Origin: a virus
Taxonomy: Duplodnaviria > Heunggongvirae > Uroviricota > Caudoviricetes
DNA: 64,000 nucleotides
Direction: 5' to 3' (one strand)
Virus record (IMG/VR): IMGVR_UViG_3300042894_006602
The notes under the pieces were generated by a model. The model saw only the letters and a list, made by a program, of their open reading frames with translations, did not search any database and was not told where the DNA came from. The translations under genes and the position numbers were made by a program. Shown here piece by piece: positions 31,628 through 57,074 of the stretch (within the stretch, counting starts at the first letter, position 1; every line of letters starts with the position of its first letter).

Positions 31628-31654
31628 TTGTTTAGAATTTTTTTTATTAAGATA

Positions 31655-33624: not shown

Positions 33625-34587
33625 TTATTTTTGGTAACCAAATCTTATAAAATCTTCTTTATAGATTTCATAAATGATATCTTTTTGTTCGTCAGTCAAC
33701 TCATATTCATATTTAGGTGTCTTATTTTCATAAGGAAGTTGAATAGGGTCTAATCCAATTACTTTACAAATTTCGTTAAAGTCTTGTTGCATTGTTTCTA
33801 CATGACCTAAATAATCTACACCGTCAGGAATAAAATAGTGTTGTGGTGTTAAGTGTTCCTGTTCTAATGAATTTACTAATTTAGTTTTGATAAATTCATC
33901 TATATCAGAATTTCCAATAAACTTATCTTTTTCTTCTTCTTGTTTTGTTCCTAATCCACCATTAACTAAGAAAAAGTAAGCACTTAAAAATCTTTGATAA
34001 GGATTTCTAACAAAAGCAAATGAAAAACATTTTGAATTTTTCCTATCAAATACATTATGATTTGTCCGCACACTAAGAACTTTTTTCACACTTGTTCCGC
34101 CAGTTTTTGGAATATGACAAAAAGTGTATTGTTCATTTTTTATATGATTTGTGTGAATTACATTATCCCATTTGTCTTTGACAATTAATAATAGGTTACC
34201 AATTTTCGCTAACTTTTCTACCGGTGAATGCCAAAATCTTTGTCCACCGAATTTGTGAGAGCTTCTCCAAATAATACGGTTATTAAATGTATCGTAAAGT
34301 CTAAATTTTAATTCTATATGTTCATTTGAATTAATATAAATCTTATTTGAAATATAGTCAATAGAAGTTGTGATTATTGGAACTGAAGGATTGATACTAA
34401 TTTCTGGACTATCAATTTCTGAGGTAGTATTAATTCTAAAATTAATATCTGGTGATAACTCCCAGCAATTTCTTTCAAAGATTAACTTACCGTCGATATT
34501 TCTTACAGAAATTTGAAAAAGTCCTGATTTTCCAACTTCAAAATATATCGTTTGTTCTGGTTCTGAAATTCTTAATTTTGTAATCAT
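33625..34587 (-). CDS. sulfotransferase family 2-like protein with N-terminal beta-rich domain
   Basis: FCHIPKTGGTS matches the 5'-PSB (PAPS-binding) motif of Sulfotransfer_2-type enzymes. RNPYQRFLSAYFF fits the 3'-PB region. Confidence 0.55.
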   Translation of the reverse strand: MITKLRISEPEQTIYFEVGKSGLFQISVRNIDGKLIFERNCWELSPDINFRINTTSEIDSPEISINPSVPIITTSIDYISNKIYINSNEHIELKFRLYDTFNNRIIWRSSHKFGGQRFWHSPVEKLAKIGNLLLIVKDKWDNVIHTNHIKNEQYTFCHIPKTGGTSVKKVLSVRTNHNVFDRKNSKCFSFAFVRNPYQRFLSAYFFLVNGGLGTKQEEEKDKFIGNSDIDEFIKTKLVNSLEQEHLTPQHYFIPDGVDYLGHVETMQQDFNEICKVIGLDPIQLPYENKTPKYEYELTDEQKDIIYEIYKEDFIRFGYQK

Positions 34588-38303: not shown

Positions 38304-39566
38304 TTACTCATTTTTTATTGATTTGTAAAGTGAAGTCACTTTAACATCAAGACCTTTTGCTATATCAACACTTCTGTTATAAACGTCATCGAATTTCTTT
38401 TCGTTAAGTAGTTTACCTTCTTCATCAACTCCAGTTAAAATTGATTCGATATTATATTGGAACTTACTTAAATCAGCATAAACATCATCAATTGCTTCTT
38501 TAAGACCATCAGCAATATCTTCAATTCTTTCTTCAATACCCATCAGATAAAGTGTATATTTATGTGGTGAGCCTTTCAATTTAGCAACTGAAAATAAATT
38601 ACTTGGTGTAAAAAAGTTTCTATAACAAAGTGGATCTGTCTTATCTTCAATGCCTCTAAGTACAGTAATTTCAATTCTATCAGCAAATTTTAAACATATA
38701 ACAAAGTGGTCAACCGGTGTTGGTAGTCTTCCTTCTTGTTTTGCTTTTTCTTCATCTAAATAAGCAACTGGAAGTGTAGCAGTTAAACTATCATAAAGTT
38801 TTATTTGCCAAGTTTCACCATCGGCTCTAATATCAGCTTTCGAATTGTCTTCAACAATTTTAGAGTTTTTAATCATACCACCTAAGAATGATTCAAAAAG
38901 AAAACCAGAAGAAGCTGGAGTAAAAAAGTCCTTAATTTCATTAATATAATGTAGAAGCATAATTGCTGACATCTCTTTTTGAATTGTTCTACGGCTTCTT
39001 TTTCTTTTTTCAATACCCTGGCTTAAAGATTGTAGTTCAGAAAGTTTCATTACAAAACCATCACGACCCGAACCAGTTCCGAGACCTCTTGAGTATCTAC
39101 GAACTTTCTTAACAACTTCCATATCAACTTTAGTGTTGACCCAACCAGTTGATAAGATTGGAATTAATTTTGAATAATCATATGGATTACCTTCTTCGAG
39201 TTTGCCTTCTGGTGTTTTTACAGTATCATAAAATTTCCAAAATCTACTTTTAACATTCTTTATATAACTTGGAACTTTTACTTGGTTACCATCAGCGTCA
39301 ACTAAGTGTCCATTTTGCATATTTTTCTTAGGAGCAACTAACTGTCCATTTTTATCAATTCCTGCTAAGTATCTAATACCATCGTGTCCAATAATTCCCA
39401 CGACTTCATTTCTACCACCAACTTTTGCTTTTTCAATATTTCCTTTTCTTAGGGGATATTGTTCAATTGAGCCATTATAAAGATTTCCCATTTCGTCGAT
39501 TACGCAATCGAGAACAGGAATCATTACAACTTCATTCAAAAACTCGGTAAACTTAAATAAATTCAT
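38304..39566 (-). CDS. N-tagged (MNLFKFTEFLNE) hypothetical protein (420 aa)
   Basis: Shares the N-terminal motif. No recognisable catalytic motif. Confidence 0.5.
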   Translation of the reverse strand: MNLFKFTEFLNEVVMIPVLDCVIDEMGNLYNGSIEQYPLRKGNIEKAKVGGRNEVVGIIGHDGIRYLAGIDKNGQLVAPKKNMQNGHLVDADGNQVKVPSYIKNVKSRFWKFYDTVKTPEGKLEEGNPYDYSKLIPILSTGWVNTKVDMEVVKKVRRYSRGLGTGSGRDGFVMKLSELQSLSQGIEKRKRSRRTIQKEMSAIMLLHYINEIKDFFTPASSGFLFESFLGGMIKNSKIVEDNSKADIRADGETWQIKLYDSLTATLPVAYLDEEKAKQEGRLPTPVDHFVICLKFADRIEITVLRGIEDKTDPLCYRNFFTPSNLFSVAKLKGSPHKYTLYLMGIEERIEDIADGLKEAIDDVYADLSKFQYNIESILTGVDEEGKLLNEKKFDDVYNRSVDIAKGLDVKVTSLYKSIKNE

Positions 39567-39635: not shown

Positions 39636-40463
39636 ATGAAAATCATTTTATTTATAGCCACATTAAGTTTACTTTTAGGTTGTGCAAAGTCAAATTTACC
39701 CGAATCTGATTCCGATGTTAGTTTAAATAATATCAATAATATAGATTCATTGAAGAGTAATCAGAAGATTTTAGATACTATGGTAATCCAAGAGGAACTT
39801 ATAGTTGTACAAGAGCTAAAAAGAATACCGATGGATGAAAACAAAAGTACTGTGGATGAAGTAAAGATAATTGAGAAACACGAAAAGAAAACTCAATTAA
39901 AAGTTGTTGATAGAACTTCTAAAAATTCCGATGTAAATAAAGGTTGGATTGCTTATTCAGTTCCAGAAGAAATGAAAGTTGAAAAGAGTTTTTCAGTTAA
40001 AGTTAGAATATCTAAGAAAAGCGGTCAATCAAAAGCTGAATTGATTTTAGGCAATGATGATGCTATAAACAATCCAGACTATCCATCAATTGCTATGATT
40101 GAAGATGTTAAAGTGTCTGGTGAGATGTCTGCTGAATTGAGAGGTGATTTAGATGCTTTCAAAATCGTGTGTCTTTCTACACCAACACAAAATATAGATG
40201 ATGAAAGTTATACTGAGTGGGATTGGATTGTAACACCTAAAAAAGGTGGTCAAAATCATTTAAAATTGGTTGTTAAGTTAAAAGACTTAAATAAAGATAT
40301 CATAGTTTTTAATAGAAACATAAATGTAAAGTCTAATGTGCCGGTTGTTGTCAAAGGTTTTTTTGAAAAATACTGGCAATGGCTTATGACAACTATAATT
40401 ATTCCAGTATTTATATACTTCTGGAATAAGAAGAAGAAAAAGAGACAAACAAAAAAGAGTTAG
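39636..40463 (+). CDS. lipoprotein with C-terminal TM anchor and poly-Lys tail
   Basis: Signal peptide with an LLGCAKS lipobox, a C-terminal TM helix and KKKKRQTKKS. Confidence 0.5.
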   Translation: MKIILFIATLSLLLGCAKSNLPESDSDVSLNNINNIDSLKSNQKILDTMVIQEELIVVQELKRIPMDENKSTVDEVKIIEKHEKKTQLKVVDRTSKNSDVNKGWIAYSVPEEMKVEKSFSVKVRISKKSGQSKAELILGNDDAINNPDYPSIAMIEDVKVSGEMSAELRGDLDAFKIVCLSTPTQNIDDESYTEWDWIVTPKKGGQNHLKLVVKLKDLNKDIIVFNRNINVKSNVPVVVKGFFEKYWQWLMTTIIIPVFIYFWNKKKKKRQTKKS

Positions 40464-40486
40464 AAAAATCTAACTCTTTTTTTTTA
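40452..40486. terminator. bidirectional terminator (AGAGTTAGAAAAATCTAACTCT + T9)
   Basis: Hairpin overlapping the stop codon of the 39636-40463 gene, between convergent genes. Confidence 0.65.
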
Positions 40487-40753
40487 ATACTCTTCATCGT
40501 AATCATCATAACCAAAGTCATCATAATCATCATCTTCTTCATCCCTATCTAAATAAGGAAAAACATCATTCTCATCAAAAAGTTCAATCAATTCTTCAAT
40601 TTCTACTTCTTCTAAATCCAAGTCTTCAATTTTGAAAACCTCACCATCCAATTCGAATTTAATTTTTAATTCTTTCTGTAGTTGCTTTAATCTTTTTAAT
40701 ACTGCTTTTCTATCAATTGCTTCGTCTAAACTGTAATAATTGTGGAGTTCCAT
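40484..40753 (-). CDS. small highly acidic protein (C-terminal DDDYDDFGYDDYDEEY)
   Basis: 89 aa with a strongly acidic C-terminal third. Confidence 0.45.
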   Translation of the reverse strand: MELHNYYSLDEAIDRKAVLKRLKQLQKELKIKFELDGEVFKIEDLDLEEVEIEELIELFDENDVFPYLDRDEEDDDYDDFGYDDYDEEY

Positions 40754-40761
40754 ATTTTATT

Positions 40762-41505
40762 CTATTTTTTATTTAATTTTTTTGCTATTTCGGTTTCTGA
40801 TAATCTTGGTAATTCCTCAGTGATTGGATATTTAGTTAAGATAGCAAATTTTTCACCATCATCCATATAAGTAACATCTAAATAGTATCCAGCACACTTA
40901 ATCTTCATTCTGGTATCAGAAATCTCAACTGGAATTATCTCAGAAGTTTGTGGTAAATCGAATGATTTAATATTTCTGATAAATCCCCAGTTGTCATTCT
41001 TATAAAATTCTGCCTTCAAAAGTTGTAAAAAACTTGAATCTTTTTTTAATAACTCATTTTTTCTAATACCATGAACATCTTTAAATTTGAAGCCAAGTGT
41101 TATGTGAAAGTCAAAAGGTTTTAATCCGAATCTGTTTCTTATAGCGTTTAATTTTTCAGATTTACAAACTATAAAATAACATCTATTTTCATTCTGAAAT
41201 GCGGTTCCGATACCTAACATTTTCAAATCATCAATCTCATAATGAAATATTGGTTCGAGTGAATTAATGAATTTGTCAATACCCAAATCTTTTGAAAGTT
41301 GATTGTAATCCATTACATTAATAACGGTTAGATGATATTTGCCACCATCACGTTGCTTTTGTAAATCAGTGAATATTTTGAAATCATCTTCGCCAATAAT
41401 AGACTCCAATTCATTCAAATAAGGCTCAACAATGTCATGTGGTATATCTAAACCCAAATAATTGTTAGCCACGCGGTCTTTTAAATAAGAAACATAATAA
41501 ATCAT
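40762..41505 (-). CDS. 2H phosphoesterase superfamily protein (LigT/CPDase-like)
   Basis: Two H-x-T-x motifs (GKYHLTVIN and FDFHITLGF) at the spacing typical of 2',3'-cyclic phosphodiesterase / 2'-5' RNA ligase folds. Confidence 0.6.
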   Translation of the reverse strand: MIYYVSYLKDRVANNYLGLDIPHDIVEPYLNELESIIGEDDFKIFTDLQKQRDGGKYHLTVINVMDYNQLSKDLGIDKFINSLEPIFHYEIDDLKMLGIGTAFQNENRCYFIVCKSEKLNAIRNRFGLKPFDFHITLGFKFKDVHGIRKNELLKKDSSFLQLLKAEFYKNDNWGFIRNIKSFDLPQTSEIIPVEISDTRMKIKCAGYYLDVTYMDDGEKFAILTKYPITEELPRLSETEIAKKLNKK

Positions 41506-41524: not shown

Positions 41525-42697
41525 TTATAAAAGATTTTTGAAATTTTCTATTTCTCTCTTTTTAATTTCAATTCCTAAATCTCTACCCTTAAAACCCTGA
41601 GACATAAGCTCTTCAGCCGATGTGATTGGTTTATACTCAACGAATTTAATTTTGACATTATCATTAATGCCCAATGCTTTATACCATTCAATTATAGTAT
41701 TATCATCAATGTGACACTGAAGTTTAGATTTATACATATCAAAAGCCAACTCAGGAGTTAATTGTAATAATCTAATTAAGAAAACCACTTTTGTTGATAC
41801 TTCTGATTCTATTTTATAATCTTGAACCAATTTCTTTTCTAATCCATCCGTACTTTCATTCTTAAATAGATTAGCAATAACTACAACAAAATCTTTACTA
41901 TCAACTAATTCAGTATTGATATCAGAATCCGGAAATACTTCAGACCACATATCAAACTTAGTAAAGAAGTTCAAATAGTTTCTATAATCTTTTGCTTGTT
42001 TCCAAGCTTTCTTCATTTCTTCCCAGACTCTTTCTTGAGAAATTCTTTTCATTTCACCAGTTTCAGGTTCTATATTTTCTAATTGTTTTCTTTTTTCAAT
42101 TGCCTTCTCAGTGTCTACATGAAGTGGATGTCCATATCTCGAAGCAAAACGAAATGCTCTTAAAATTCTTAAACTATCTTCGTCAAACCTTTCTATAGGA
42201 TCACCAACCATTTGAGTTATACCTTTTTCTAAGTGCTCACGACCTCCAGTCAAATCAACAATCTCTTTATTATCTAAGTCATAGAAAAGTGCGTTATAAG
42301 TCAAATCTCTTCTTTTAACATCATCTTCAATAGTAACTCCTAATTTAACTTCAGGGTTTCTTCCTTTACTAACATCTTCTCTGAATGTAGCAATTTCCAT
42401 TCCCTCTGGTTGATCATCGGTGAATACAACTACAACTCCAAATGCTTTACCCTGTAAGTTAGTCTTATAATCTTTTCCGATGATTTCTAATACCTCATCT
42501 GGGAGAGCGTCAGTTGCTAAGTCAAAGTCTTTTGGTTTATCTCCAGTGAGGAAGTCTCTAACGGCACCTCCGACGACATACAATTTTTTTCCTTTTGATT
42601 TGAAAAGTAATTGCAATTCTTTAACCGATTGTGGAATTATATTCCACATATCTGAACTTTGTGATTCTAAAAACTGTTGATATTTTTTAATTTTCAT
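41525..42697 (-). CDS. cca: tRNA nucleotidyltransferase (CCA-adding enzyme / poly(A) polymerase head-domain family), N-tagged (MKIKKYQQFLES)
   Basis: LYVVGGAVRDFLTG..PKDFDLAT (the GG..RD..DxD nucleotidyltransferase core), RDLTYNALFYD and DPIERFDEDSLRILRAFRFASRYG match class II CCA enzymes. Confidence 0.8.
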   Translation of the reverse strand: MKIKKYQQFLESQSSDMWNIIPQSVKELQLLFKSKGKKLYVVGGAVRDFLTGDKPKDFDLATDALPDEVLEIIGKDYKTNLQGKAFGVVVVFTDDQPEGMEIATFREDVSKGRNPEVKLGVTIEDDVKRRDLTYNALFYDLDNKEIVDLTGGREHLEKGITQMVGDPIERFDEDSLRILRAFRFASRYGHPLHVDTEKAIEKRKQLENIEPETGEMKRISQERVWEEMKKAWKQAKDYRNYLNFFTKFDMWSEVFPDSDINTELVDSKDFVVVIANLFKNESTDGLEKKLVQDYKIESEVSTKVVFLIRLLQLTPELAFDMYKSKLQCHIDDNTIIEWYKALGINDNVKIKFVEYKPITSAEELMSQGFKGRDLGIEIKKREIENFKNLL

Positions 42698-42713: not shown

Positions 42714-44009
42714 TTAATCTCTATATAATGAATTTAATCTCACCACTCTAAGTTTATCAATAAAATCTTCCAACTCTGACAATTCAACTGGTCTTTCTTC
42801 ATGTTCACACCAAGTTTCGATTATATCTTCTTTAAAGTCTTTACCATTTGGTTGTATATAATCAATGTCACCTTCAAAAAGATCAACTAATAAATTTCTA
42901 AACTTAATAGCTTCTCTTCTGTTTGAGAAATAAACTTCACTAAACTCAGATCCTTCAATCGATACAACTCCTGTAGACACCATAGGTAGTTTTACACCAT
43001 CTTCATCTTTGCAGTTTTGATTGGTCAGATTGATATAAACATCTTGTAACCAAATTATACCATTATTTGAGTTTGTATAACCTCTGATATCACCACCAAC
43101 ATACCAATCTAAAACTTCTAAATCTTCTTCTGAAACTGGATGAACTCCAAACATAAACTGTGGCCAAAGTGAATTTCTATCAAGATCTAACCATTCTGGT
43201 AGCATCTCACTTAGGTAATAGTCAGAATTAAAATACAATTGTATATAACAATTTGCGAATTTAATTTCACTTCCCAGACCCATAACGGTACCACCACCCT
43301 TAACAAATCTTAGTTGAAATTGACCTAATTTTTTTGCTTCTTCTAAAGCCATCTTGTGTTTAGCATCCTTTTCTCTTTGTCTAACAACCTCTGCCCAAGC
43401 TCTTAGTTGTTCAGGTCTTTTAATATGACCTAAACTTTTTAATTTATCAGCCGCACTTATGTATGTTCTTGGATCAAGATCTTCATTTGTTGAAAGGTGT
43501 CCTCTCGTTCTATCTACAAAAATTTTTTCCTTAGTGAATGAAATCTCAAATGTCCATTTATTAACTCTATCAAAAGTCGTTGGATCATATACTGGTGAGT
43601 TTATAATTTGAGGTCTTCTTTGGTATTCTTTTTCAATAGACTTGACACCAAATGTTTCAGGATCTGTTGTCCAATGATAACCTTTAATTTTCTGGTTAAT
43701 TGTGAATCCATCTTCTGATTCTTCAAAGTTTTCATCTTCTACACAAGTAAAGTGTTCTATTTCAAATCCCTCTCCACTTAAATAAGACCAAATAGATTCA
43801 ATTGGTATTTTTATATCACTATATGTGAATTCTTTATTCCTACTCACAGAAACTTTAACTCTTTCTTTTTGTGAATGATAATCTATCTCAGAAACATTAG
43901 TTTGAAACTCATCATCCCTTAATTCAATAAGCAAGTCTTCAACTGTTGATTTCAATTCTGATTTCAATCTAACACCGACAGCTTCTTCATATCTTTTTAA
44001 ATACTTCAT
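42714..44009 (-). CDS. paralog family member A (431 aa; N-tag MKYLKRYEEA, C-term SLYRD)
   Basis: Part of a 4-gene tandem array with overlapping stop/start codons. Confidence 0.55.
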   Translation of the reverse strand: MKYLKRYEEAVGVRLKSELKSTVEDLLIELRDDEFQTNVSEIDYHSQKERVKVSVSRNKEFTYSDIKIPIESIWSYLSGEGFEIEHFTCVEDENFEESEDGFTINQKIKGYHWTTDPETFGVKSIEKEYQRRPQIINSPVYDPTTFDRVNKWTFEISFTKEKIFVDRTRGHLSTNEDLDPRTYISAADKLKSLGHIKRPEQLRAWAEVVRQREKDAKHKMALEEAKKLGQFQLRFVKGGGTVMGLGSEIKFANCYIQLYFNSDYYLSEMLPEWLDLDRNSLWPQFMFGVHPVSEEDLEVLDWYVGGDIRGYTNSNNGIIWLQDVYINLTNQNCKDEDGVKLPMVSTGVVSIEGSEFSEVYFSNRREAIKFRNLLVDLFEGDIDYIQPNGKDFKEDIIETWCEHEERPVELSELEDFIDKLRVVRLNSLYRD

Positions 44010-44012
44010 CTT

Positions 44013-44870
44013 TTAATCTCTATATAAACCATTTACTGACATTCTCTTAGCAGCATCAACAGCTCCTTTATAAGTATCTTCACCAAAAGGATTTTTTGGC
44101 CAGGTATCTGGATCTGTTAAATCATATTCATCCTCTCTACCATTTAAGTAATGGTCCATCAGTTTTTTTCTCCACCCCTCTTCATCTAAACTAAGTGTTG
44201 ATTTTAATTGTTCTGCAATTGTTCTTTCACCATAAGTACCCCAATTTGATTTTCCTTCTAATGTATTAGATAACAAGTTTTTAAATTTCATAGCATCTGA
44301 TCTATAGTTAAAGTGGAAAGTAAATCCATCTCTATCTTCAAATCCACCAAGTCCACATGTATAAGAAGGAACTCCGCCTTTACCAAAAAGAGTAAGCCAC
44401 AATCTATTAGTCCAGTATCTATAGTCACCCCACATAGAGTTATTTCTAAAATACTCAATGTCTTTATTTTCGCTTGTTTCAAGCATTTTAAGCGTTTCAT
44501 CATCAGCTGGTATAATGGCAAATTCCATAGCAATTCCCATTGACCAATCCATACCTTCGTCTAACCAATCATGTAACTGGTCTTTAAACCAATCAGATTC
44601 TAAACACATTTGTAGATAAAATTTACCAGAAAATATATCTTTCTTATTTGATCCATAACCTCTTGCCACTGTAATATCAAATAAACCAAACTCTTTATTT
44701 TCACTTTGAGCTTGTAATAACTTTTGAGATTTCTCTTTTAATTCAACTTGAGTTGCATAATCTAATAATTCCGCACCTCTTCTTTTGTGACCCATCTGAG
44801 TGAATTTTTCACCTGCTTTTTTGTAAGTAGATGCTTTTAACTCTTCATTAAATCTTTTTAAATATCTCAT
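44013..44870 (-). CDS. paralog family member B (285 aa; N-tag MRYLKRFNEEL, C-term NGLYRD)
   Basis: The N-terminal 40 aa are alignable with members C and D (..TY..AG.K....GH..R...L). Confidence 0.55.
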   Translation of the reverse strand: MRYLKRFNEELKASTYKKAGEKFTQMGHKRRGAELLDYATQVELKEKSQKLLQAQSENKEFGLFDITVARGYGSNKKDIFSGKFYLQMCLESDWFKDQLHDWLDEGMDWSMGIAMEFAIIPADDETLKMLETSENKDIEYFRNNSMWGDYRYWTNRLWLTLFGKGGVPSYTCGLGGFEDRDGFTFHFNYRSDAMKFKNLLSNTLEGKSNWGTYGERTIAEQLKSTLSLDEEGWRKKLMDHYLNGREDEYDLTDPDTWPKNPFGEDTYKGAVDAAKRMSVNGLYRD

Positions 44871-45592
44871 AGTGTTGAAGAAAGTAAATTTGGACTAATT
44901 GTTCTCATGTATTCAGCAGCATCTTCTAATTTAAATCCATAATCAGAAGAGAATGAATTCTCAGCTAAGATACAATTTGTTAATTTTTCATATAAGTCAT
45001 CAGCATCCGTATAACCAGAAGGATACCCTAATTGCGGATTACTAAATATTTGAATAAGTAAATTTTTGAACTTGTTAGCGGACCCTCTATCAGCAAAATT
45101 GATTTTACCATTCATATCTTCATCATAGTCCCACATATTCCACTTAGTAAATCTAACAGTATCTCCTAATTCATATTCTAAATTAAAGATTTTACCCCAG
45201 AAAAATCCATTTCCAAAGTCATAGTCTGGACAAAGTTCCATATACTGATAGATTAAATCTTCAGATGTTGGAATTAAACCTATAAAAAAAGTAATACCAC
45301 TTTCTGGTTCATCACCAAATGCCAAATCATCAAAGTTAACATCTAAATGAAAATCACCAGTTAATGTACTTCCGGTCTCTGGATTTTTTATAGTCATCTT
45401 AAATGTTCCGAATTGAGCATAATCTTGAATTCGGTCTTGCCACTTAATCATCTCTTCTTTTTTCTCAGTTTCTTTAGCCCAGTCTTTTAAAGCATTTGCT
45501 CTATCATGATGACCTAATTTATCAAGTTTTCTAGCAGCAGACATATAAGTCTGTGGTCTTAATTCTTCGTTAAACTTTTTTAAATACTTCAT
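44867..45592 (-). CDS. paralog family member C (241 aa; N-tag MKYLKKFNEEL)
   Basis: 4-nt overlaps (ATGA) with both neighbours. Confidence 0.55.
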   Translation of the reverse strand: MKYLKKFNEELRPQTYMSAARKLDKLGHHDRANALKDWAKETEKKEEMIKWQDRIQDYAQFGTFKMTIKNPETGSTLTGDFHLDVNFDDLAFGDEPESGITFFIGLIPTSEDLIYQYMELCPDYDFGNGFFWGKIFNLEYELGDTVRFTKWNMWDYDEDMNGKINFADRGSANKFKNLLIQIFSNPQLGYPSGYTDADDLYEKLTNCILAENSFSSDYGFKLEDAAEYMRTISPNLLSSTL

Positions 45593-46491
45593 AAACTTAT
45601 TTCTTTTTCATACCATCTACTACGAATCCAATCACCAGATCCACCACGAGTTGGTAAATCATCATCATAAAGACCTTGAATTTTTATTTTTGTAAAAGCA
45701 TCAACAGCTTTTTCTATGTTTTCTGATTTACCACCAACAATTCTTAAAACATTCATAATAGCATCTTTGATATCATCTAAGTGATTAGTGATAAGCCAGT
45801 TTTTAAATTTAACTGCTGATTTTCTGTCACTGAAAATACCATATTGATTATCATTAGGAGATTTTATGATTACATTATAACATGCAGACCAATTATAAAA
45901 TTCCGTCAAAGTAGTTGGAGTAAATTCTTCACCATCGCGAAGAAGTCCATTTTCAGCATCCCATCTAGCATCAGCATCCCAATCATTTAAACCACTATAC
46001 CATTCACTTAAGTCTATTTGTAAGTTAAAGGCTTTTACTTCTTTAGCAGTAGGATTATTAGCATTCCAACAAAAATTTGAGCTTCTATTACTTTTTTCTA
46101 TAGTTTCTCTTGTAGCCTTAAAGGAAAACTCAAAACTTATATTAAGTCCATCTTGACCCAATTTCCACCTTTCAACTAAATCTTCTGCTAACATTTCTGG
46201 ATCTTTTCCATATGACATTCCATTAAATCCTTTAAATTCATCTTTGTATTTTGTTGGAGTTGAAGCATAATAAATACCCGTCAATCTAGGTTGAGTAAAT
46301 GATGATTCTTTTGCTATAAAGACTGGATTATTATTTGCCCATGTCATATTATAAAAACCAAACTCTCTTTCATCAGCAAAATCATGTAGTAAAGAAGCTT
46401 GACTAGTCTTATTATAATAATCTAATTTACTACCAGCACTTCTGTAAGTCTTAGGATTTAACTCTTCGTTGAATTTCTTGATAAACTTCAT
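45589..46491 (-). CDS. paralog family member D (300 aa; N-tag MKFIKKFNEEL, C-terminal IQGLYDDD)
   Basis: Same N-terminal architecture as members A-C. Confidence 0.55.
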   Translation of the reverse strand: MKFIKKFNEELNPKTYRSAGSKLDYYNKTSQASLLHDFADEREFGFYNMTWANNNPVFIAKESSFTQPRLTGIYYASTPTKYKDEFKGFNGMSYGKDPEMLAEDLVERWKLGQDGLNISFEFSFKATRETIEKSNRSSNFCWNANNPTAKEVKAFNLQIDLSEWYSGLNDWDADARWDAENGLLRDGEEFTPTTLTEFYNWSACYNVIIKSPNDNQYGIFSDRKSAVKFKNWLITNHLDDIKDAIMNVLRIVGGKSENIEKAVDAFTKIKIQGLYDDDLPTRGGSGDWIRSRWYEKEISL

Positions 46492-46526: not shown

Positions 46527-46781
46527 ATGAAATGGATAAAATTATTTGAGGATTTCAAACAAAATAATGAAGAAGGAACTCTTATTACAATTGATGATAT
46601 TATAAAATGTATTAAGAAAAGAGGAGTTATTTATGCGACGATTGTTAAAGAATATCCAGATAATAACCCAAAAGATCCAATCACTCCTGTTGATATAGAT
46701 GAAGATGGTTTAATAACAGTTGATATTGATGGAAAAGAATATCAAATTGACCTAGATGATGTTGAGAAAATAGAATACTAA
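46527..46781 (+). CDS. small N-tagged protein (MKWIKLFEDF)
   Basis: 84-aa ORF with the shared N-terminal motif. Confidence 0.4.
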   Translation: MKWIKLFEDFKQNNEEGTLITIDDIIKCIKKRGVIYATIVKEYPDNNPKDPITPVDIDEDGLITVDIDGKEYQIDLDDVEKIEY

Positions 46782-47275
46782 TCAATTAAGTTTCTTAATT
46801 TTATATCTCTTAATATAGGTTTCGTTTTTTCATTTACTAAATGAGTTATTTCATTTTCGCTTCTATAATTCATACCAGTTAAATCATAAGTGCTGTATTG
46901 ATAACCACCCAATATATCTTTCATTATTTGAAGGTGTGTTTCTTCAGTTCTCCAGAAATTTTTTAGCGGAAAAGGTATCCACATATCAATGTTATTAGAT
47001 TGACAGTAACCAATTAGGTCTTTAAATTTATAGGTGTCTTCTTTATAGATATCAACATGAAATAACATTAGATTTTTACCATCAAGTTTTTCTAAATCGA
47101 TTTTATCAGGATGATTACATCCAAATTTAGTCCAGATATAAGGTTCCGATACTTGGTGTCTATAAAGTAACATACATTCTGGAAGACTATAGAATATTTG
47201 ATAACAAGCTCGAGCGGCTACATTCCAAGCGAGCTTGTATTCAATACTCATATCCATTTCTAAAACATTAATCAT
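46778..47275 (-). CDS. hypothetical protein (165 aa)
   Basis: ORF overlapping the next gene by 8 nt. Confidence 0.45.
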   Translation of the reverse strand: MINVLEMDMSIEYKLAWNVAARACYQIFYSLPECMLLYRHQVSEPYIWTKFGCNHPDKIDLEKLDGKNLMLFHVDIYKEDTYKFKDLIGYCQSNNIDMWIPFPLKNFWRTEETHLQIMKDILGGYQYSTYDLTGMNYRSENEITHLVNEKTKPILRDIKLRNLID

Positions 47276-47834
47276 TTAAGAACTTAATAATTTTTTCTTT
47301 TATCCCAGATTGTTTAATACCAATATATTGTTTAGTCATAACAAAATTGGATAATCCACCATTTGAATTACCAGAAACCGGTCCAAACTTTTCACCTAAA
47401 TCCATATCATCAACAGCAACCCAATTAGTAACTTCTGGATGTTGGTCTAACCAAGTTTTAATTTCCTTAATTCTCCACTCCTCTAACTCACTTTGTGTGA
47501 ATTGGGATTTAGACTGATAACTTACTAAATTAGGAGTAACATCAATTGGTGATTTGATAACATCATATTTATCAAACATATCTTGAAGTTCTTCAAGTGT
47601 AGCAAACAACTTCCAATCTGAACTAACAACAATCTCAACATCATAATGTAACAAAATCGAATTGAGAGTTTTAGTTGCTTTAAAATCAAAGTTGTCTAAC
47701 TTAATCCAAGCCGGCATATCATCTTCAGATGAACCAGGAAATTCTTTTTTAAACTTAATCATTTTTTTAGCACGACCACCCCACTGCTCAGCGAGACACA
47801 TCACACCATCGAAATCTAAAAATATTACTTTCAT
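47268..47834 (-). CDS. HAD-like hydrolase
   Basis: N-terminal MKVIFLDFDGVM (DxDGV motif I) and VVSSDW. Confidence 0.5.
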   Translation of the reverse strand: MKVIFLDFDGVMCLAEQWGGRAKKMIKFKKEFPGSSEDDMPAWIKLDNFDFKATKTLNSILLHYDVEIVVSSDWKLFATLEELQDMFDKYDVIKSPIDVTPNLVSYQSKSQFTQSELEEWRIKEIKTWLDQHPEVTNWVAVDDMDLGEKFGPVSGNSNGGLSNFVMTKQYIGIKQSGIKEKIIKFLND

Positions 47835-48727: not shown

Positions 48728-49285
48728 ATGAAGTATCTTAAAAAGTTTAGACTATTTGAAAAAAGTGCCAGTTCTTTAGTATCTGAACAAATTGATTTAG
48801 TGGAATTAGAGAATATTCTAATTGACTTTGAACAAATGGGTTTAGACTATGATATTAAAGCTGGATCATCTATTGTAATAGATTGGAATTTATTTAACGA
48901 TGATAAAACTGGTGGTACAAAATGTTTACACTCAAGAGAAATTGATAAATACACAAAATCATCTGGTAATTCATTAACAATAGAATTCAATACATCAGAA
49001 CCACATACTTATAATATAAACGAAACATCAGAAGCTTATGAAATGTTAAAGCATTATCTTTTTGATAATTATAATCTAATTCCAAACTATATCTATATTA
49101 ATAGTCATTGGAATTATATGTACTTTGAGGACTTTGATAAGATAAAAGAAATAGAAGTTACTGATAATTGGCAGTTCTCAAATCCGAGCCTTCCATTAAG
49201 ACCAGAAAATACATTTAAAGCACACAAATTAGTTTTTGGATTTTATTTAGATCCTAACGCAGTTTTCAGAGGACCTGAGTTCTAA
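48728..49285 (+). CDS. N-tagged ([13 protein letters not shown]) hypothetical protein
   Basis: Shared N-terminal motif. Confidence 0.5.
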
Positions 49286-50979
49286 CTACACTCCGGACAA
49301 TCGTGACGTCCATTTCCATCACAATCATAACATTCTCTTTCACCGTCACCATCACAATCACCACACTCTACTCGACCATCACCATCACAGTTTCTACAAT
49401 CGTAATTTCCATCACCATCACATTTGTAGCATTCTTTTCTACCATTACCATCACAGTCTAAGCATTCTTGTTTTCCACTTCCAGAGCAGTTTCCACACTC
49501 TTCTCCGTCTATTTCACCATCACCATCACAATCATCACAATCTACTTTACCATCTCCATTACAAGGATCACAGTATAAATCACCAGCACCATCACAGATA
49601 TGACATAGTTCTTTACCACTTCCATCACAATCATCACAGTCTACATTTCCTCTACCATCACACTCGTAACATTCTCTAGTTCCATCACCATCACAGCTTC
49701 CACATTCAACTCTACCATTTCCGCCACACTCAGAACAAGATCCGTTTCCACCTTCTGTGTCAGTAAGTTCATATTCGTAATCAAAGTTTGATGAATTGTA
49801 AAGCATTCCTTTTCTTGGATTATAATACTTAAATGAATCCATATAAGGATAGTGAGCATACTCACCACCATTATCTAATTCAACAGAGAATTCACCTTGT
49901 CTTTTTTCAACAGTTCCGTCTTCTTTATGAAACTCAAAGTCAGTATATTCACTAAAGTCTTGTCTTGATTTAAACCAATATTTGTTTGCAATGGCCCACT
50001 CTTTAAATAGTTGTTCATCAGCAGTTCTGATACTATAAATTCTTTCCATAACATTTGTCGACAACTCATAAGGTTCCATTTCCCAAAGAATAGCTCTTCC
50101 ACAAATCTTATCTGGATTACTCTCTGACATTAATAACAGAAGTTTACATTGACTATTATCTGTATAAATACTTAAATAGTTTTGACATCTATCATAGCGC
50201 ATACAAGAGCTTCCTAAACTTCCGGATTCTTCTTCATACATACTTCTATGATAGTATTTTTTGATATCTTTTCCTTCTACAACTTTAAATCTTGTATTTA
50301 GAACGTCTTTTAATTTTTCAATCTCAGCACGATACTTATAAACAAAGTCTTCAATTTCAGCGTCTTTGAATTTAACACCGGATTTTGTAAGAAGTGCTCT
50401 AACAAATCTACCAACCGAAACTTCAGAACTACGAACAGCACTTGGGCCATCATTAACTGCAGCTTTATTTATAAGTATTTGATGTTTTTTTCCATTCTTA
50501 ACCCATTGAAAAATAACTAATGGATTTCCTGTTATAAATGAGTATTCAAAATTAGATTTGTATTCAGGAAGAAGTGAACTTATCTCTTGTAAAGTGTAAA
50601 TTTTTACAACTTGACCAACTGTGTCGTTTTCTGGAACAATAAATTCCGACTCCTCGTATTTATCAACTCCACTTCCTTCTATTTTACTTAATTGATACGT
50701 GATTTGTGGATAAATTCCATTTTGACTTATGACCTTACCTGTCTTACCAACTTTATCATCTGGTTTGAAGAAAAGTGTATCAGTTTTTTCTTTATTAATA
50801 TCAATATAGTTTTGGTTGATATCAACTTCTTTACCTTCAATATCAAACAAATGAGTTGATATTGGCGAGTCAATTTTTTTTAGAACAGAAACAAAATCTT
50901 TAGAAAAGTCTATGTTTGCTTCTAATAGCAAAAAAAGGTTAGACTCTGTAATAAAATCGTCATATTTGAATAACTTCAT
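49282..50979 (-). CDS. N-tagged ([14 protein letters not shown]) protein with about 16 tandem DnaJ-type CxxCxGxG zinc-finger repeats at C-terminus
   Basis: The C-terminal 150 aa read [45 protein letters not shown]..., regular C-x2-C-x-G-x-G units. Confidence 0.65.
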
Positions 50980-51004: not shown

Positions 51005-51047
51005 CTAAAAATAAAAAAGTCTCAGATTTCTCTGAGACTTTTTTTAC
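51005..51047. terminator. bidirectional terminator (GTCTCAGATTTCTCTGAGAC + T7)
   Basis: Perfect hairpin with the same core as the terminator at 37601-37618. Confidence 0.75.
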
Positions 51048-52516
51048 TTTTCATTTCCCTCAATAGTAATTTGTTTCACCTTACCATTAGTTCTTGAAAT
51101 GGGACACTTAACACCAACTGAGATAATCAAAACCTTACCTTTTACTTTTGAAAAATCAAGAGTGTCGGTATAACCATCCGTCAACAATACACTATTACAA
51201 TCGTTGTGATGTTCTACAATGTAGTCAATCATTGGTTGTAAGCAAGTTCCTCCCAATCCTTTAATCGGAATACTTTCAAGTTGTCTTTTACTTTTGATAT
51301 TTTCAACCCAGTTCACTTGTGTATCACTTTCCATGAAATTTATTTCAATATCATTTCGATAAACATAAGAAAGAACTCTCTCAAATGTTCCCTGACCACC
51401 CATTGAACCAGAAGTATCAAGTCCAACATTAATCTTAGTTTTCACCTTACGAGCTCCTTTCAATCCAGAGATACCTTTACGATTAGGCTTAACAATAGTT
51501 CTTTCTTTAACGGTTCCGAAAATCATATTAGAAACTGCTCTTTTGATTTCACGAAGATAATCTTTACGTTTCTTACGAAGTTTGTTCAATGTTTGTTCAA
51601 CATTACCAGCAGAAAGACCACGAGCCGCCAATCGCTCCATAACATCTTTAACCATCGCATCTCTCAATTCTTCTGGAACATCATCACCAATATGTTTATC
51701 AAGATATTCACCGCTACCGTTTTCCATATCTTGGAAGATTTGCTCTTTTGACCATGTGTCGAGTGATTCACCATCTTTTGATGGATTTTTTCCATAAGGC
51801 CCATAAGAAGGCTTTCCAGTAGAGTCTTTACCACCTTCGTTTCCGGTACCATCGCAATCAGGACACTTTTCATCTTGAGGTTGACCATCACCACTACCAG
51901 TGCCAGAACCTTTTTCATCTTTTTTATCACCTTTGCCTTCACCATCAGATTTTTGGCCATCACCTTTGTTATCAGATTTCTTACCAGATCCGTTACAAGA
52001 TTGACATTGTGAGTTTTGTTTTTGCTCTTTTTGCCATTTATCTTTTTCATCTTTTAGCCACTCATACAATTCTTCAAAGATAAGTTTTCCTGTATATTCT
52101 TTTGGAACAAAAAGAGCCATATTCTTACCATCAGAAGATTTTGGAATTTCAACAAACGCATGTGGAATATCCTCCCAAATAACGTGGTTAATAATCATAT
52201 CCTGTGCAATGTTTGACAATTTGTGGTCGTATTGACCAGTAATTGTTCTACGAGGGTGGTTAAAAAGAAGGTGAAAATCTTCGTGTAGAGTGATAAAATT
52301 CACTTCTTTTTGAGACATGTTTTCTAAAAACTTTGGTGAGTAGTAGAAGTTCATGCCCTTTGAGGTTACGTTTACTGCACAAGTTCCGATAGAATCTTGC
52401 TCGTGGAAACTGACGTGTAGGTTAAACTCACCGTAATAAGGAAGATTGATTTTAGTATCAATCAACATTGTTTGGATACCGTTGAGTAATTTTTCGTGGA
52501 TGTTCTTAATTATCAT
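51044..52516 (-). CDS. putative metallopeptidase (HExxH) fused to VWA domain (DUF2201-like architecture) with Gly/Asp/Lys-rich CxxC linker
   Basis: LHEDFHLLFNHP (HExxH). MIDAS-type GLDTSGSMGG. The central low-complexity linker contains CQSC and CPDC. Confidence 0.6.
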   Translation of the reverse strand: MIIKNIHEKLLNGIQTMLIDTKINLPYYGEFNLHVSFHEQDSIGTCAVNVTSKGMNFYYSPKFLENMSQKEVNFITLHEDFHLLFNHPRRTITGQYDHKLSNIAQDMIINHVIWEDIPHAFVEIPKSSDGKNMALFVPKEYTGKLIFEELYEWLKDEKDKWQKEQKQNSQCQSCNGSGKKSDNKGDGQKSDGEGKGDKKDEKGSGTGSGDGQPQDEKCPDCDGTGNEGGKDSTGKPSYGPYGKNPSKDGESLDTWSKEQIFQDMENGSGEYLDKHIGDDVPEELRDAMVKDVMERLAARGLSAGNVEQTLNKLRKKRKDYLREIKRAVSNMIFGTVKERTIVKPNRKGISGLKGARKVKTKINVGLDTSGSMGGQGTFERVLSYVYRNDIEINFMESDTQVNWVENIKSKRQLESIPIKGLGGTCLQPMIDYIVEHHNDCNSVLLTDGYTDTLDFSKVKGKVLIISVGVKCPISRTNGKVKQITIEGNEK

Positions 52517-52582: not shown

Positions 52583-54346
52583 TTATTCAACAACTTTATT
52601 AATTTTATTATCTCTCATTAAGGCAACTGGAACTTTATGATAATCATCCATTTTTAAAATCTCGGTTCCTTCAGGTAGTGTTAAGGACACACAGGCATCT
52701 TCTACTTGATGTTGAATATAATCATCCAAATCAAAGTCAGATGTGAATTCACCTACATCATACATAGCAGTTACTCCAATAGTTCCTTTAAAGTATGGAA
52801 GTAAGAATGAACCTATTCCACCACCATCTTTCATAGCATCTGGATATTGTTTTTGCCATTTCTTAAACTCTGGTAAAGTCATAATTGAGATAAAACCATC
52901 AGAATCATAAGAACCTTTCATCTTTTTATTACCAACATAAACTTCAAATGAAGTGTAATCATCAGTAATTTCAACAACACGATTATCAACGTGGTCGATT
53001 GTACCTACAACCACTAATGTAGTTTCTTCTTCGTAAGTAACTAAATCTTTAGATTTGATTTTAATCGGAGTTATTTTTGTTTCAACTTCAGTAACTTCAA
53101 CAGTCTCTTTTGTTTCAACTTCTTTCTCTTCTTCTTTACTTTTGTAAGAATTAGATTGACACAATTTATCAAACTCTTCATCTTGAGCAAATCCAGATTT
53201 AATCATCTTAGAAACAAGTTGATGCCAGTTCAATTTACCACGATATTCAAATCCTTCTTCAGTAAGTTTCATCTTACCATCAATGTCCAAAGTAGCAATC
53301 TTTTGATATACTTCTTTTTCTAACTGAAAGTCTTGGTTTGTGATATCATCTGACTTAGCAATATTGATTTTATAGTAACCCTCAGTAAGCATCTTCATTA
53401 AGACATCGGTTTTTAACTTCATAATGTCAGCAATTTTAGCCGCTACTTTAGCCTCAGTTTCATCCAACTCTTCCATATCCTTCATTTCTTCAGATACAAA
53501 GAATACATAACCATTTGGTTCATCACCAGGTTTCATTGTTTCAAGTCGAGTTTCTAATACACCAAGAGCTTCTTTCTTCTCTTCGGCTTTTTGTTCAGCC
53601 ATTTTAGCATCATTTTTATATCGAATGATTTCTTTTTTAGTTTCGTCAATACGATATTCTAACTCAATGATTTTTGCTTCATTCATTTTACGGAATTGTT
53701 GTTCCATATAAGACTCAGCTGCAACTTTTAGTTTATCATTAGGTTCGGATGGGTTTTCTACTTCTTCTAAAATAGTTTTGACATCTTCTTCTGAAAGGTC
53801 GTCTAACATAGAATTCATCACTTCTGAAAGTGCGTGGTCTTCGTCAAATTCACCTTCATCATTACTACCAAATAAATCATCAAGTAAACTTAAACTCTTT
53901 TCAGATACTTCTACTTTATCTTCTTCATCAAAAAGAGATTTTAATTTATCAATAGGTTTTTGATGTTCAACTTCTAAGTAACAACGGTCACCTTTGACAT
54001 CAGCGAACTCTAAACCGCCAACAACAAATTTCTGTGCATAACCAGTAACATCCATTTCATCAATTTCATTAAGTAATCGTTGAATCATAGCTTTATCAGA
54101 AAGATTAGTTCCTTCTTGTTCTTCAATGTTAATTGTACCTTCATCACAAATAGTGATTTTAAAAATAGCACCTTCTAAAACACCAGATAGTCTTTCACCT
54201 TTAAGAAAGGCAACGTCACGTATAAAACGAACACGAGCACCATTAACTGCTGAAACAAAGTTTAGGAATTTTCTTTTAGGTTTAAATTCGCCAATGAGTG
54301 GCTCAGTTCTTACTTCCATTTCTGAATTTTGAATATCTTCTTGCAT
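52583..54346 (-). CDS. large acidic coiled-coil protein (587 aa)
   Basis: Long ORF. No Walker motifs found by eye. Confidence 0.5.
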   Translation of the reverse strand: MQEDIQNSEMEVRTEPLIGEFKPKRKFLNFVSAVNGARVRFIRDVAFLKGERLSGVLEGAIFKITICDEGTINIEEQEGTNLSDKAMIQRLLNEIDEMDVTGYAQKFVVGGLEFADVKGDRCYLEVEHQKPIDKLKSLFDEEDKVEVSEKSLSLLDDLFGSNDEGEFDEDHALSEVMNSMLDDLSEEDVKTILEEVENPSEPNDKLKVAAESYMEQQFRKMNEAKIIELEYRIDETKKEIIRYKNDAKMAEQKAEEKKEALGVLETRLETMKPGDEPNGYVFFVSEEMKDMEELDETEAKVAAKIADIMKLKTDVLMKMLTEGYYKINIAKSDDITNQDFQLEKEVYQKIATLDIDGKMKLTEEGFEYRGKLNWHQLVSKMIKSGFAQDEEFDKLCQSNSYKSKEEEKEVETKETVEVTEVETKITPIKIKSKDLVTYEEETTLVVVGTIDHVDNRVVEITDDYTSFEVYVGNKKMKGSYDSDGFISIMTLPEFKKWQKQYPDAMKDGGGIGSFLLPYFKGTIGVTAMYDVGEFTSDFDLDDYIQHQVEDACVSLTLPEGTEILKMDDYHKVPVALMRDNKINKVVE

Positions 54347-54378: not shown

Positions 54379-54765
54379 TTAAATATCATTATTAATGATA
54401 TTAATTTTTACGTCTCTAACTTCTTCTTTAGTTAAAGGCTCTGGAAGTTGATTTCCATCCACATCAACAATATTATCAGTTTCGATGTATTTGTCACCAC
54501 TTTCTTCAATTAGCTCTTGTAAGACAGGATTAAGAGTTTCTTTGTCGTCTTGTATTTCAAATAACTCCATTACTTCATCTCTAAACGGTTGAAAGTTATA
54601 AACAACAGTTGGTTGTTCATCATCATGTTTATCTAAACAAAGAGTCAATAATAAATATAGCTCTTTTCTAGAAAGTGCTTTCATTTCTTCAACTTTATTT
54701 ATAACATTAAAGTTTTTGAAGATATCAACAAACTCGTTTGATACTTTTAATTTTTTTGTTTCCAT
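54379..54765 (-). CDS. hypothetical protein (128 aa)
   Basis: ORF only. Confidence 0.45.
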   Translation of the reverse strand: METKKLKVSNEFVDIFKNFNVINKVEEMKALSRKELYLLLTLCLDKHDDEQPTVVYNFQPFRDEVMELFEIQDDKETLNPVLQELIEESGDKYIETDNIVDVDGNQLPEPLTKEEVRDVKINIINNDI

Positions 54766-54983: not shown

Positions 54984-55278
54984 CGGTTTTTATAATTTGA
55001 TTTATTTTTTCGTCTCTTAGATTTTGAATATCATATTCAAACATTATCTTAAACCAGGCTCTTTGTATTTCTTGTTTTTCACCTTGTTCATTTACAACCC
55101 AGTATTTTTTCCAACCCCCATTCAATTTAAACCCATCTTCAAATGACCAAGTTTCATACTCACCGTCATACCACTTTCCCTTTTCAAAAGTTACTAAATC
55201 CGTATCAAATAATCTACTGGATTTACCACTTGATATTTTTGTAGTTCCTTTACAAAGAAATTTTGACTTGACAATCAC
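54970..55278 (-). CDS. hypothetical protein (102 aa)
   Basis: ORF only. Overlaps its neighbours. Confidence 0.4.
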   Translation of the reverse strand: MIVKSKFLCKGTTKISSGKSSRLFDTDLVTFEKGKWYDGEYETWSFEDGFKLNGGWKKYWVVNEQGEKQEIQRAWFKIMFEYDIQNLRDEKINQIIKTDENE

Positions 55279-55784
55279 AGACCAAGTTTTTCTAATTTAT
55301 ATTCTCTGTAATCTTGTTTAGAAACAGAACCTAATTCATATGCTCTTTGAAAAAAAACTTCGAAGATTTCTTCCTGTTTCATTTTCTTAGCAGCAATTGC
55401 TCTATTAATTGCTTTGCCTTCATTAGTTATGCGGTTGGCTTGTGTTCTAGCAAGAGATATCATTTTATCAACATCTCCATCTGATTTTTCCACTATGTCA
55501 GATACCCTTTTAATATTTTTTTGAAATTCTTCAAATGATTGAGGTTGTTCTTTTAAATCCATATATTTTTTTAATTTATCTTCCAATATACCAAAACAAT
55601 GATTAAATCCATTCTGGAGTCTTATTCCATTCCATTCACATTTACCAGAAAGGTTTTGTTCATAAATTTCTCCAGTATCTCTATTCTTTCTTCTTGTGAT
55701 TTTACCTTTAAACCAAAACCAATAACAATTTAATCTTTCTTCTTTTAAGAAGTCAGAATAAAAAGTATTGTTCCATTTCTCCAT
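55275..55784 (-). CDS. hypothetical protein (169 aa)
   Basis: ORF only. Confidence 0.45.
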   Translation of the reverse strand: MEKWNNTFYSDFLKEERLNCYWFWFKGKITRRKNRDTGEIYEQNLSGKCEWNGIRLQNGFNHCFGILEDKLKKYMDLKEQPQSFEEFQKNIKRVSDIVEKSDGDVDKMISLARTQANRITNEGKAINRAIAAKKMKQEEIFEVFFQRAYELGSVSKQDYREYKLEKLGL

Positions 55785-56582: not shown

Positions 56583-57074
56583 TTATTTTTTAATCCAAAT
56601 TACTGCTATATACTTTGTTCCTACTTCAACTGGTAGACCAGTGTGTAAACTCATAGTGTCTTCTTTTCCATTTTCATCAATGTTGTCCCAAATAACCAAC
56701 TTACCAATTTCTGGTTTAATTGTCCTGTTTAATTTAGGAAATACAGTTTCACCACCTCTAAATCCATTATTTAAATAAACCAATGCTGTCTTTTGACGAA
56801 ACTCACCATCGGTATGTTCTTTATATTCACCACCTTCGACATATCTTACAAAATGAAGTCTTTCTTGTTTATCTATATCAACACCAGATAGGCGAGCAAC
56901 ACCGACTTTGATTTTTGTGACAACTTCATTTTCATCCAACCAATTTACTTTTGCTTTTCTGTATCCTATTTTTACACCACCGGTTGTACCAAGACTTAAA
57001 TTAGAAGACTCACCAAATCCGATTAGTGATTGACACTCATCTGCTGTAAGAAAATTTTCGTATTCAATAATCAT
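56583..57074 (-). CDS. 2OG-Fe(II) oxygenase, prolyl 4-hydroxylase-like (P4Hc)
   Basis: FLTADECQSLI start, HTD..(HxD), RGGETVFP and a distal HTGLPV..G.KY.AV.W match the P4H alpha C-terminal domain pattern. Confidence 0.7.
   Translation of the reverse strand: MIIEYENFLTADECQSLIGFGESSNLSLGTTGGVKIGYRKAKVNWLDENEVVTKIKVGVARLSGVDIDKQERLHFVRYVEGGEYKEHTDGEFRQKTALVYLNNGFRGGETVFPKLNRTIKPEIGKLVIWDNIDENGKEDTMSLHTGLPVEVGTKYIAVIWIKK

Follow-up and report, generated by a model that had tools for sequence, protein, structure and literature searches.

An ancient array of four paralogs beside RNA-repair genes in a huge phage: a possible hetero-oligomeric accessory with a portable N-terminal tag

The window analysed here is a 64,000-nucleotide (nt) stretch of IMG/VR virus record IMGVR_UViG_3300042894_006602 (Caudoviricetes), with 82 genes encoding 19,012 residues and a G+C content of about 30%. 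At its positions 42,714 to 46,491 lies a tandem array of four open reading frames (ORFs) of 300, 241, 285 and 431 amino acids (aa), called positions 1 to 4 in that order. The original prediction, made from the sequence letters alone, described four co-directional paralogs with a shared N-terminal tag, a conserved helix and conserved C-termini around completely different central regions, and suggested host-interaction or anti-defence cassettes or injected effectors. The sizes and common orientation of the genes are as predicted, all four lying on the minus strand. The features of the locus are as follows.

47268-47834, minus strand: HAD phosphatase of RNA-repair type (HAD_SAK_2, 1.5e-24)
46527-46781, plus strand: 84-aa acidic tagged protein (g84) starting MKWIKLFEDF, divergent from and immediately upstream of the array
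45589-46491, minus strand: position-1 paralog, 300 aa, the most divergent type (ORF list and profile comparison)
44867-45592, minus strand: position-2 paralog, 241 aa, the minimal core
44013-44870, minus strand: position-3 paralog, 285 aa, C-terminus NGLYRD
42714-44009, minus strand: position-4 paralog, 431 aa, consisting of the tag, an extra domain (X) and the family core
41525-42697, minus strand: CCA-adding transfer RNA (tRNA) nucleotidyltransferase, 16 nt past the end of the array, with a PolyA_pol head domain (2.9e-30)
40762-41505, minus strand: 2H phosphoesterase of the "Swiss Army Knife" (SAK) RNA-repair type (PF22547, 5e-20)
40484-40753, minus strand: acidic 89-aa protein, the last cistron (isoelectric point (pI) 4.05, net charge -24)
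40451-40482, minus strand: terminator-like hairpin with a 14-bp stem, directly past the last cistron

The ATGA overlaps of start and stop codons that had been noted within the array are present at two of the three junctions, at 45589-45592 between positions 1 and 2 and at 44867-44870 between positions 2 and 3, while positions 3 and 4 are separated by a 3-nt spacer (TAA-AAG-ATG). The tag is found in all four products, which begin with MKFIKKFNEEL (300 aa), MKYLKKFNEEL (241 aa), MRYLKRFNEEL (285 aa) and MKYLKRYEE (431 aa). The expected (N)GLYRD or GLYDDD ends were found as NGLYRD in the 285-aa protein, NSLYRD in the 431-aa protein and QGLYDDD in the 300-aa protein, although the last of these is not terminal, being followed by an extension of about 20 aa that ends in a W[YF] motif. 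The 241-aa protein ends in PNLLSSTL, and its orthologs in PNELYKTL. The helix NEEL..TY.SA..KL...GH..R is likewise present in the array proteins, with two departures from the prediction: DYYNK replaces GH..R in the 300-aa protein, and the helix of the 431-aa protein starts only at residue 175, after MKYLKRYEE and X, an alpha/beta domain of about 170 aa (X at about 43500-44009, family core at 42714-43499). Relatives were taken from a comparison set of related loci, L001-L036, made up of metagenome contigs (L001-L007) and IMG/VR loci, plus LR745206.1 and LR756502.1. Because X is absent from position 4 in some relatives (266 aa in L005), and an X-like 163-aa tagged ORF stands separately inside the array of L018, the 431-aa gene looks like a fusion.

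The four genes are almost certainly true paralogs, with sequence homology extending over most of their length. They have in common MK[YF][LI]K.F-NEEL, the TY..A..KL...GH..R helix, F.DR..A.KFKN.L and an N.LY.D end. Pairwise BLASTP (database size 1e8) gave E values of 3e-13 for the 285-aa versus the 431-aa protein, 7e-10 for 241 versus 285, 2e-6 for 241 versus 431 and 5e-5 for 241 versus 300, figures that cover four of the six pairs. Given these values, and since the tag and the N.LY end recur across the family, the similarity is not due to chance. Ortholog alignments were also compared by hhalign, profile against profile, after removal of the first 45 residues (tag, first helix and turn). The cores of the 285-aa and 431-aa proteins matched at 99.3% probability (E 6.5e-21, 208 columns), those of 241 and 285 at 97.2%, and those of 241 and 431 at 93.9%. 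The similarity thus reaches well past the first dozen or so residues, and for three of the four proteins (94-99%) the claim of completely different central regions is incorrect. It comes closest to holding for the 300-aa protein, whose core is only weakly related (78-82%), yet even here the F.DR.SA.KFK helix and the C-terminus, to which the match is confined, are shared.

These proteins belong to a family of about 250 aa that, by its sequence, is undescribed. Word-indexed searches returned 58 relatives with the 285-aa query, 105 with the family profile and 140 with the 431-aa query, all metagenomic and none with a Pfam domain. An exhaustive profile search returned 726 representatives at 50% identity with E<=1e-3 (369 at <=1e-10), nearly all of them full-length matches of 230-300 aa, and every source name that was looked up read "hypothetical protein". 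Of 144 family representatives drawn from the exhaustive search, the tag opens 112 and N.LY.{1,3} closes 105, so the GLYRD-type ends did not arise by chance. Residues conserved across the family (285-aa numbering) are M1, K2, K5, N8, E9, E10, L11, T15, Y16, A19, K22, L23, G27, H28, R31, L35, G62, G82, F84, P121, G150, R190, A193, F196, N280 and Y283; as they include the helix and the C-terminal end first picked out by eye, both are true family features. The family proteins are probably non-catalytic, since the conserved residues are mostly hydrophobic or structural, with H28, R31, R190, N280 and Y283 in addition.

Pfam, PHROGs, PADLOC and NCBIfam held no match for the four array proteins, for g84, for a 165-aa protein (g165) that also lies in the upstream neighbourhood, or for the 89-aa acidic protein; for the four array proteins no PHROG match was better than E 0.08. 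A profile search of Protein Data Bank (PDB) sequences with the family gave 0 matches, the fold had no match among solved structures, and patterns for close relatives of the 241-aa protein only found no relative in GTDB cellular genomes. All contigs in which the family was found are phage or metagenomic ones that are related to published uncultured phages of 634 kb and 642 kb, and these two unannotated records were the only relatives in phage databases. The AlphaFold2 (AF2) model of the 285-aa protein (predicted local distance difference test (pLDDT) 90.7, predicted template modelling score (pTM) 0.84) has a flexible tag at residues 1-11, of low confidence and outside the fold, a helical hairpin at 13-61, and then a beta/alpha core.

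Roughly the first nine residues (M-K-Y-L-K-x-F-N-E) form an N-terminal peptide tag in its own right, one that is portable. Among the window's 19,012 residues, [KR][YFWHLI][ILF]K.[FY] has 10 matches, 8 of which directly follow Met1. The tag is not specific to the family: across the window and the related loci, its strict form heads 25 sequence clusters unrelated to it. Some 10-15% of window genes carry the tag, and up to one third do in some related loci. In the window, the tag or a looser variant is found on the non-family proteins encoded at 24352-25323, 31139-31627, 31655-32167, 38304-39566, 41525-42697, 46527-46781, 48728-49285 and 49282-50979; looser variants head, among others, the CCA-adding enzyme and a protein of 565 aa whose CxxCxGxG zinc-finger repeats are BSD2/DnaJ-like. 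Put forward earlier as possible relatives, the ORFs at 48728-49285 and 31139-32167 share only the tag with the array proteins and were rejected as family members, having matched neither the family hidden Markov model (HMM) nor any member by BLAST. In 48 distinct family genes the codons of the tag vary synonymously (TAT/TAC 21:18, AAT/AAC 29:19, GAG/GAA 24:21, and several Leu codons) while its residues stay fixed, which indicates that selection acts on the peptide. A role at the RNA level, as a translation-initiation or promoter element, was rejected on the grounds of this synonymous variation and of the retention of the tag at internally coupled starts. The nascent peptide may affect translation, while the leading guess is that the tag serves sorting or packaging. 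A literature search for the tag strings found nothing.

Comparison with related phages indicates that the array is old. At the DNA level, the phage collection contains a single near relative of the window, the unannotated "uncultured phage" LR745206.1 of 634,780 bp. Copy number varies at the same genomic place: relatives have 1, 2, 3 or 4 copies (3 in LR745206.1, 2 in LR756502.1). As 1:1 orthologs of the four types occur in the same order in many independent phage contigs of 150-640 kb, the array is ancient rather than a fresh expansion, and all four-copy arrays have their types in identical order. Against this stable order, identity to the window's own proteins varies strongly from locus to locus, as in the following examples.

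L010: flanks 83-92%; position 1 30%, position 2 86%, position 3 80%
L001: DUF2201 protein 84%; position 1 79%, position 2 79%, position 3 36%, position 4 core 66%
L013: DUF2201 protein 92%, g84 88%; position 1 32%, position 2 90%, position 3 33%
L005: position 1 39%, position 3 75%, position 4 35% without the X domain

Alleles only 30-40% identical are found at positions 1, 3 and 4 in differing combinations among phages whose flanks are 80-94% identical. Position 2 is the best-conserved type (72-94% identity where the flanks are also close), and its identity follows that of the flanks. Read from these sequences, the pattern is one of allelic exchange within an old, fixed four-slot architecture and not of recent expansion. 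The original prediction of rapid diversification between conserved termini therefore stands in part: there is cassette-like exchange at positions 1, 3 and 4, but the array is ancient, its cores are homologous, and position 2 tracks the flanks. The same holds for the proposed host-interaction or anti-defence cassette, since the exchange resembles that at such loci while orthologous types are kept 1:1 in an operon with the CCA-adding and 2H enzymes.

That operon is very likely to be real, with the array as the first four of its seven, partly translationally coupled cistrons, since close same-strand cistrons follow the array and are succeeded by the hairpin at 40451-40482, the sole minus-strand terminator-like site between 46491 and 40451. 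The order is four paralogs, CCA-adding enzyme, 2H phosphoesterase, acidic protein and hairpin, and the cistrons are separated by ATGA overlaps or by spacers of 3-19 nt. The CCA-adding enzyme has an N-terminal extension of about 15 aa, MKIKKYQQFLES, which is a variant of the tag and is kept in relatives. Also kept in relatives, after the 2H gene, is the 89-aa protein, which has a strongly acidic tail (...DRDEEDDDYDDFGYDDYDEEY) and may be a nucleic-acid mimic.

Most of about 30 related loci, LR745206.1 and LR756502.1 among them, have the order g84 (on the opposite strand), one to four family genes, CCA-adding enzyme, 2H-SAK phosphoesterase and acidic protein, and g84 lies directly upstream of the array in 32 of 38 related loci (L001-L036). 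In L001-type phages another ORF takes the place of the CCA gene, and a few other loci are without it; the HAD_SAK_2 phosphatase is present in many, not all, relatives. CCA-adding enzymes and 2H phosphoesterases are recognised components of RNA-repair counter-defence in jumbo phages (PMC7824862). The array shows the conserved operonic linkage to RNA-repair enzymes that would be looked for in an accessory component, while the four proteins themselves carry no HAD_SAK, 2H-SAK or other described repair domain (no Pfam match). Among the conserved genes of the module, neither a ligase nor a kinase gene was identified, and the array proteins were not found described in the literature as RNA-repair components. 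In most related loci the module is also accompanied by a trio of genes (51044-52516, 52583-54346 and 54379-54765 in the window), in the wider order 128-aa protein (g128), 587-aa protein (g587), DUF2201 protein and then, further on, g84 and the rest; the DUF2201 protein is a putative metallopeptidase with a VWA-like domain, and the 587-aa protein has no family match.

Additional evidence on how the paralogs may act came from natural fusions. P0186 (698 aa, L008 239-2335) and P0200 (694 aa, L009 123-2207) are interleaved fusions in one ORF, A1-B1-A2-B2, where A is the 285-aa type (position 3) and B the 431-aa type (position 4). They come from independent samples and sequencing runs and are about 75% identical to each other. 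Residues 1-165 of P0186 correspond to A 1-164 (77% identity), residues 169-363 to B 4-197, comprising X and the first helix (69%), residues 359-469 to A 174-284 (67%), and residues 472-698 to B 197-431 (78%). An interleaved fusion is an unusual event in protein evolution; the genes upstream of these two fusions are not array members. Further fusions between family members are P0306, P0314 and P0362, and in fused paralogs only the N-terminal one keeps MKYLKxF. Natural fusions, two of them interleaved, suggest that the paralogs associate physically. If both cores fold within the fusion, the 165-174 loop of A, the N.LY tail of A and the GH..R hairpin turn of B would have to meet at one point; the fusions also suggest that the most conserved elements of the family may form the subunit junction. 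An AF2 model of the natural interleaved fusion was considered as a stand-in for a heterodimer prediction. Each domain folds in it (pLDDT 78), and it was dropped for this purpose because its pTM of 0.47 allows no interface claim.

The reading preferred here, with confidence somewhat short of even, is that four specialised paralogs make up an accessory, hetero-oligomeric and probably non-catalytic, of a phage operon for tRNA 3'-end repair and counter-defence. By their conserved types and order, the paralogs are anciently duplicated and specialised. That the four products form a complex is, on balance, slightly favoured. The assembly would be held together by three elements, namely the helical hairpin at the N-terminus, including its GH..R turn, the helix F.DR..A.KFKN.L and the N.LY.D tail at the C-terminus, and its specificity would come from the divergent, exchangeable cores. 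In counter-defence, the complex would work alongside the enzymes encoded next to it that repair tRNA 3' ends, possibly recognising damaged tRNAs or host tRNA-targeting toxins; this repair-linked role is put forward tentatively.

Several observations weigh against this reading. The complex is suggested indirectly, by the fusions and the conserved order, and the A-B interface is not confidently placed in the AF2 model of the fusion. The alleles at positions 1, 3 and 4 reassort freely, unlike what would be expected of tightly co-adapted subunits, and no co-variation of allelic types between positions was seen. The array proteins are acidic (pI 5.26, 4.62, 5.37 and 4.88 for the four paralogs) and carry no RNA-binding motif of a known kind. 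Among single-copy members, the most distant (L024, L028, L031 and L033) do not adjoin CCA or 2H genes, so that the functional link is one of guilt by association within one clade, and a shared operon could mean shared timing and not shared function.

The free reassortment of alleles would fit more readily with the paralogs being independent, fast-diversifying anti-defence or host-interaction effectors, each acting alone on its own host target, with the termini serving for folding or targeting only. The copy number of 1 to 4 and the counter-defence-type neighbourhood point the same way, as do the 30-40%-identical alleles exchanged between phages with 80-94%-identical flanks. Such independence is nevertheless unlikely, as distant huge phages share the four types in unchanged order, position 2 varies little, joint action is indicated by the coupled translation and the recurrent fusion of paralogs, and no match to a known anti-defence or defence family was found in PHROGs or PADLOC. 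Far less probable still is that the proteins are virion structural or assembly components, such as neck or tail-associated ring proteins, that adjoin repair genes by chance. A tail terminator or gpU-like alpha-beta sandwich did appear among fold comparisons, with match scores below usual confidence and in a generic fold class, but the genomic context of the array is not structural.

A different use of the tag is proposed by the view that the array proteins are packaged internal or ejection proteins. The tag would be a capsid-targeting propeptide that docks tagged proteins, including the CCA-adding enzyme, onto the scaffold core; the prohead protease would cut it after Glu, and the mature proteins would be injected together with the DNA against host defences. 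In giant phages such as phiKZ and SPN3US, inner-body and ejection proteins likewise belong to paralog families. The tag is specific to the N-terminus, is under selection at the protein level, is portable over at least 25 unrelated clusters, lies outside the modelled fold, and is kept only by the N-terminal partner of fused paralogs, all of which would suit a targeting peptide. Furthermore, the capsid-targeting sequence (CTS) of T4 is MKTYQEFIAE (PMC8442874), in which targeting depends on residues 4 and 7 and processing or cleavage on residues 8 and 10 (PMC9026906), and T4 internal-protein loci are highly diverse apart from the conserved CTS (PMC3012670, PMC9026906). The tag M-K-Y-L-K-K-F-N-E-E shares M1, K2, F7 and E10 with it and is hydrophobic at position 4; more generally, the tag has M1, K2, a hydrophobic residue at 4, F or Y at 7 and E at 9-10. 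This is resemblance and not homology, since two of the four matches in ten positions (M1 and K2) are trivial, and the capsid-targeting idea is drawn from this resemblance. T4 internal proteins are also highly basic (PMC8442874), unlike the 241-431-aa array proteins (pI 4.6-5.4), which show no sign of injection, so that the original suggestion of injected effectors is not borne out. Tag carriers would, moreover, be numerous for head contents. Packaging is thus improbable as an account of the array, while it is still a live alternative and may be complementary to the complex and repair reading, not exclusive of it.

A second terminal motif is found elsewhere in the proteome. The pattern R-[DNE]-x-[KR]-[ILFV]-x(1-3)-[ILV]-[ILVG] has 10 matches in the 82 window genes, all 10 within the last 16 residues (for example ...RDIKINDILK, ...RDVKINIINNDI and ...LRNMKIDNLIR), in the following genes.

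15054-15275, minus strand: gene with C-terminal motif
46778-47275, minus strand: gene with C-terminal motif
52583-54346, minus strand: gene with C-terminal motif
54379-54765, minus strand: gene with C-terminal motif
55275-55784, minus strand: gene with C-terminal motif
55823-56578, minus strand: gene with C-terminal motif
57071-57283, minus strand: gene with C-terminal motif
59644-60075, minus strand: gene with C-terminal motif
60290-60664, minus strand: gene with C-terminal motif
60661-61137, minus strand: gene with C-terminal motif

In the window and 36 related loci, 74 of 81 matches lie at C-termini, on 19 unrelated clusters, none of which carries the N-terminal tag. The family C-terminus, [KR]-x-hydrophobic-x-hydrophobic-N-x-L-Y-[RK]-D, resembles this motif, and a generalised pattern, designed post hoc, had five of five matches at C-termini, including those of the 285-aa and 431-aa proteins. 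A speculative and rather unlikely proposal is that terminal peptides serve these huge phages as address labels throughout the proteome, with M-[KR]-[YHW]-[LI]-K-x-[FY]-[NE]-E at the N-terminus and the separate C-terminal motif acting as sorting signals for whole toolkits. The destination would be either a compartment built by the phage or, for co-injection, the inside of the capsid, and the cargo would include the tRNA-repair enzymes along with the complex of four paralogs.

Elsewhere (1569-3512, 160-1337, 27369-28478, 32261-33220, 33625-34587 and 11459-11543), the window encodes a cohesin-domain protein, two DUF2589 paralogs, a double-PAS protein, a patatin-like phospholipase, a sulfotransferase and tRNA-Leu(TAA). 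The first of these carries a C-terminal sorting domain for type IX secretion, and this points to a host of Bacteroidota type. A further small tandem paralog pair is formed by adjacent 96-aa ORFs at 29346-29636 and 29653-29943, with very similar N- and C-termini (MYEPFVGEICQYPYNFAPKNWAPCHGQ / MDEVFIGELAQFPYNFCPAGWAYCHGQ).

Among known systems, the RNA-repair neighbourhoods of phages provide a close genomic setting. Neighbourhoods with HAD and 2H "Swiss Army Knife" domains are reportedly a subject of Burroughs and Aravind (2016). As in those neighbourhoods (Iyer et al. 2021, PMC7824862), the array shares its operon with CCA-adding and 2H-SAK enzymes, HAD_SAK_2 is nearby, and the linkage is kept in relatives. 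The inner-body and ejection families of phiKZ and SPN3US share with the array their occurrence as paralogous families in very large phages. Their proteins are cut after Glu by the prohead protease. They differ from the array in host lineage, the array is known from genes alone, and no PHROG match better than E 0.08 or other sequence match joins the array proteins to them.

IPI, IPII and IPIII, which are internal proteins of T4, offer the parallel for the tag. In both cases a short N-terminal peptide, hydrophobic at positions 4 and 7 and with Glu at about position 10, is common to proteins that are otherwise unrelated or strongly diverged, related phages differ at the loci, and a counter-defence role has been proposed. 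The array proteins differ in being paralogs of one fold in an RNA-repair operon, with no sequence homology to the T4 proteins beyond the tag; packaging and cleavage are known for T4, and the comparison here is one of sequence. The tag is also far commoner in the proteome of this phage. Terminal tags on dozens of unrelated proteins, with selection acting on the peptide, point to a system for sorting or recognition that has so far gone unrecognised in the largest phages known. If the tags do act as address labels, the principle of the T4 CTS would extend to much of the proteome of a huge phage.

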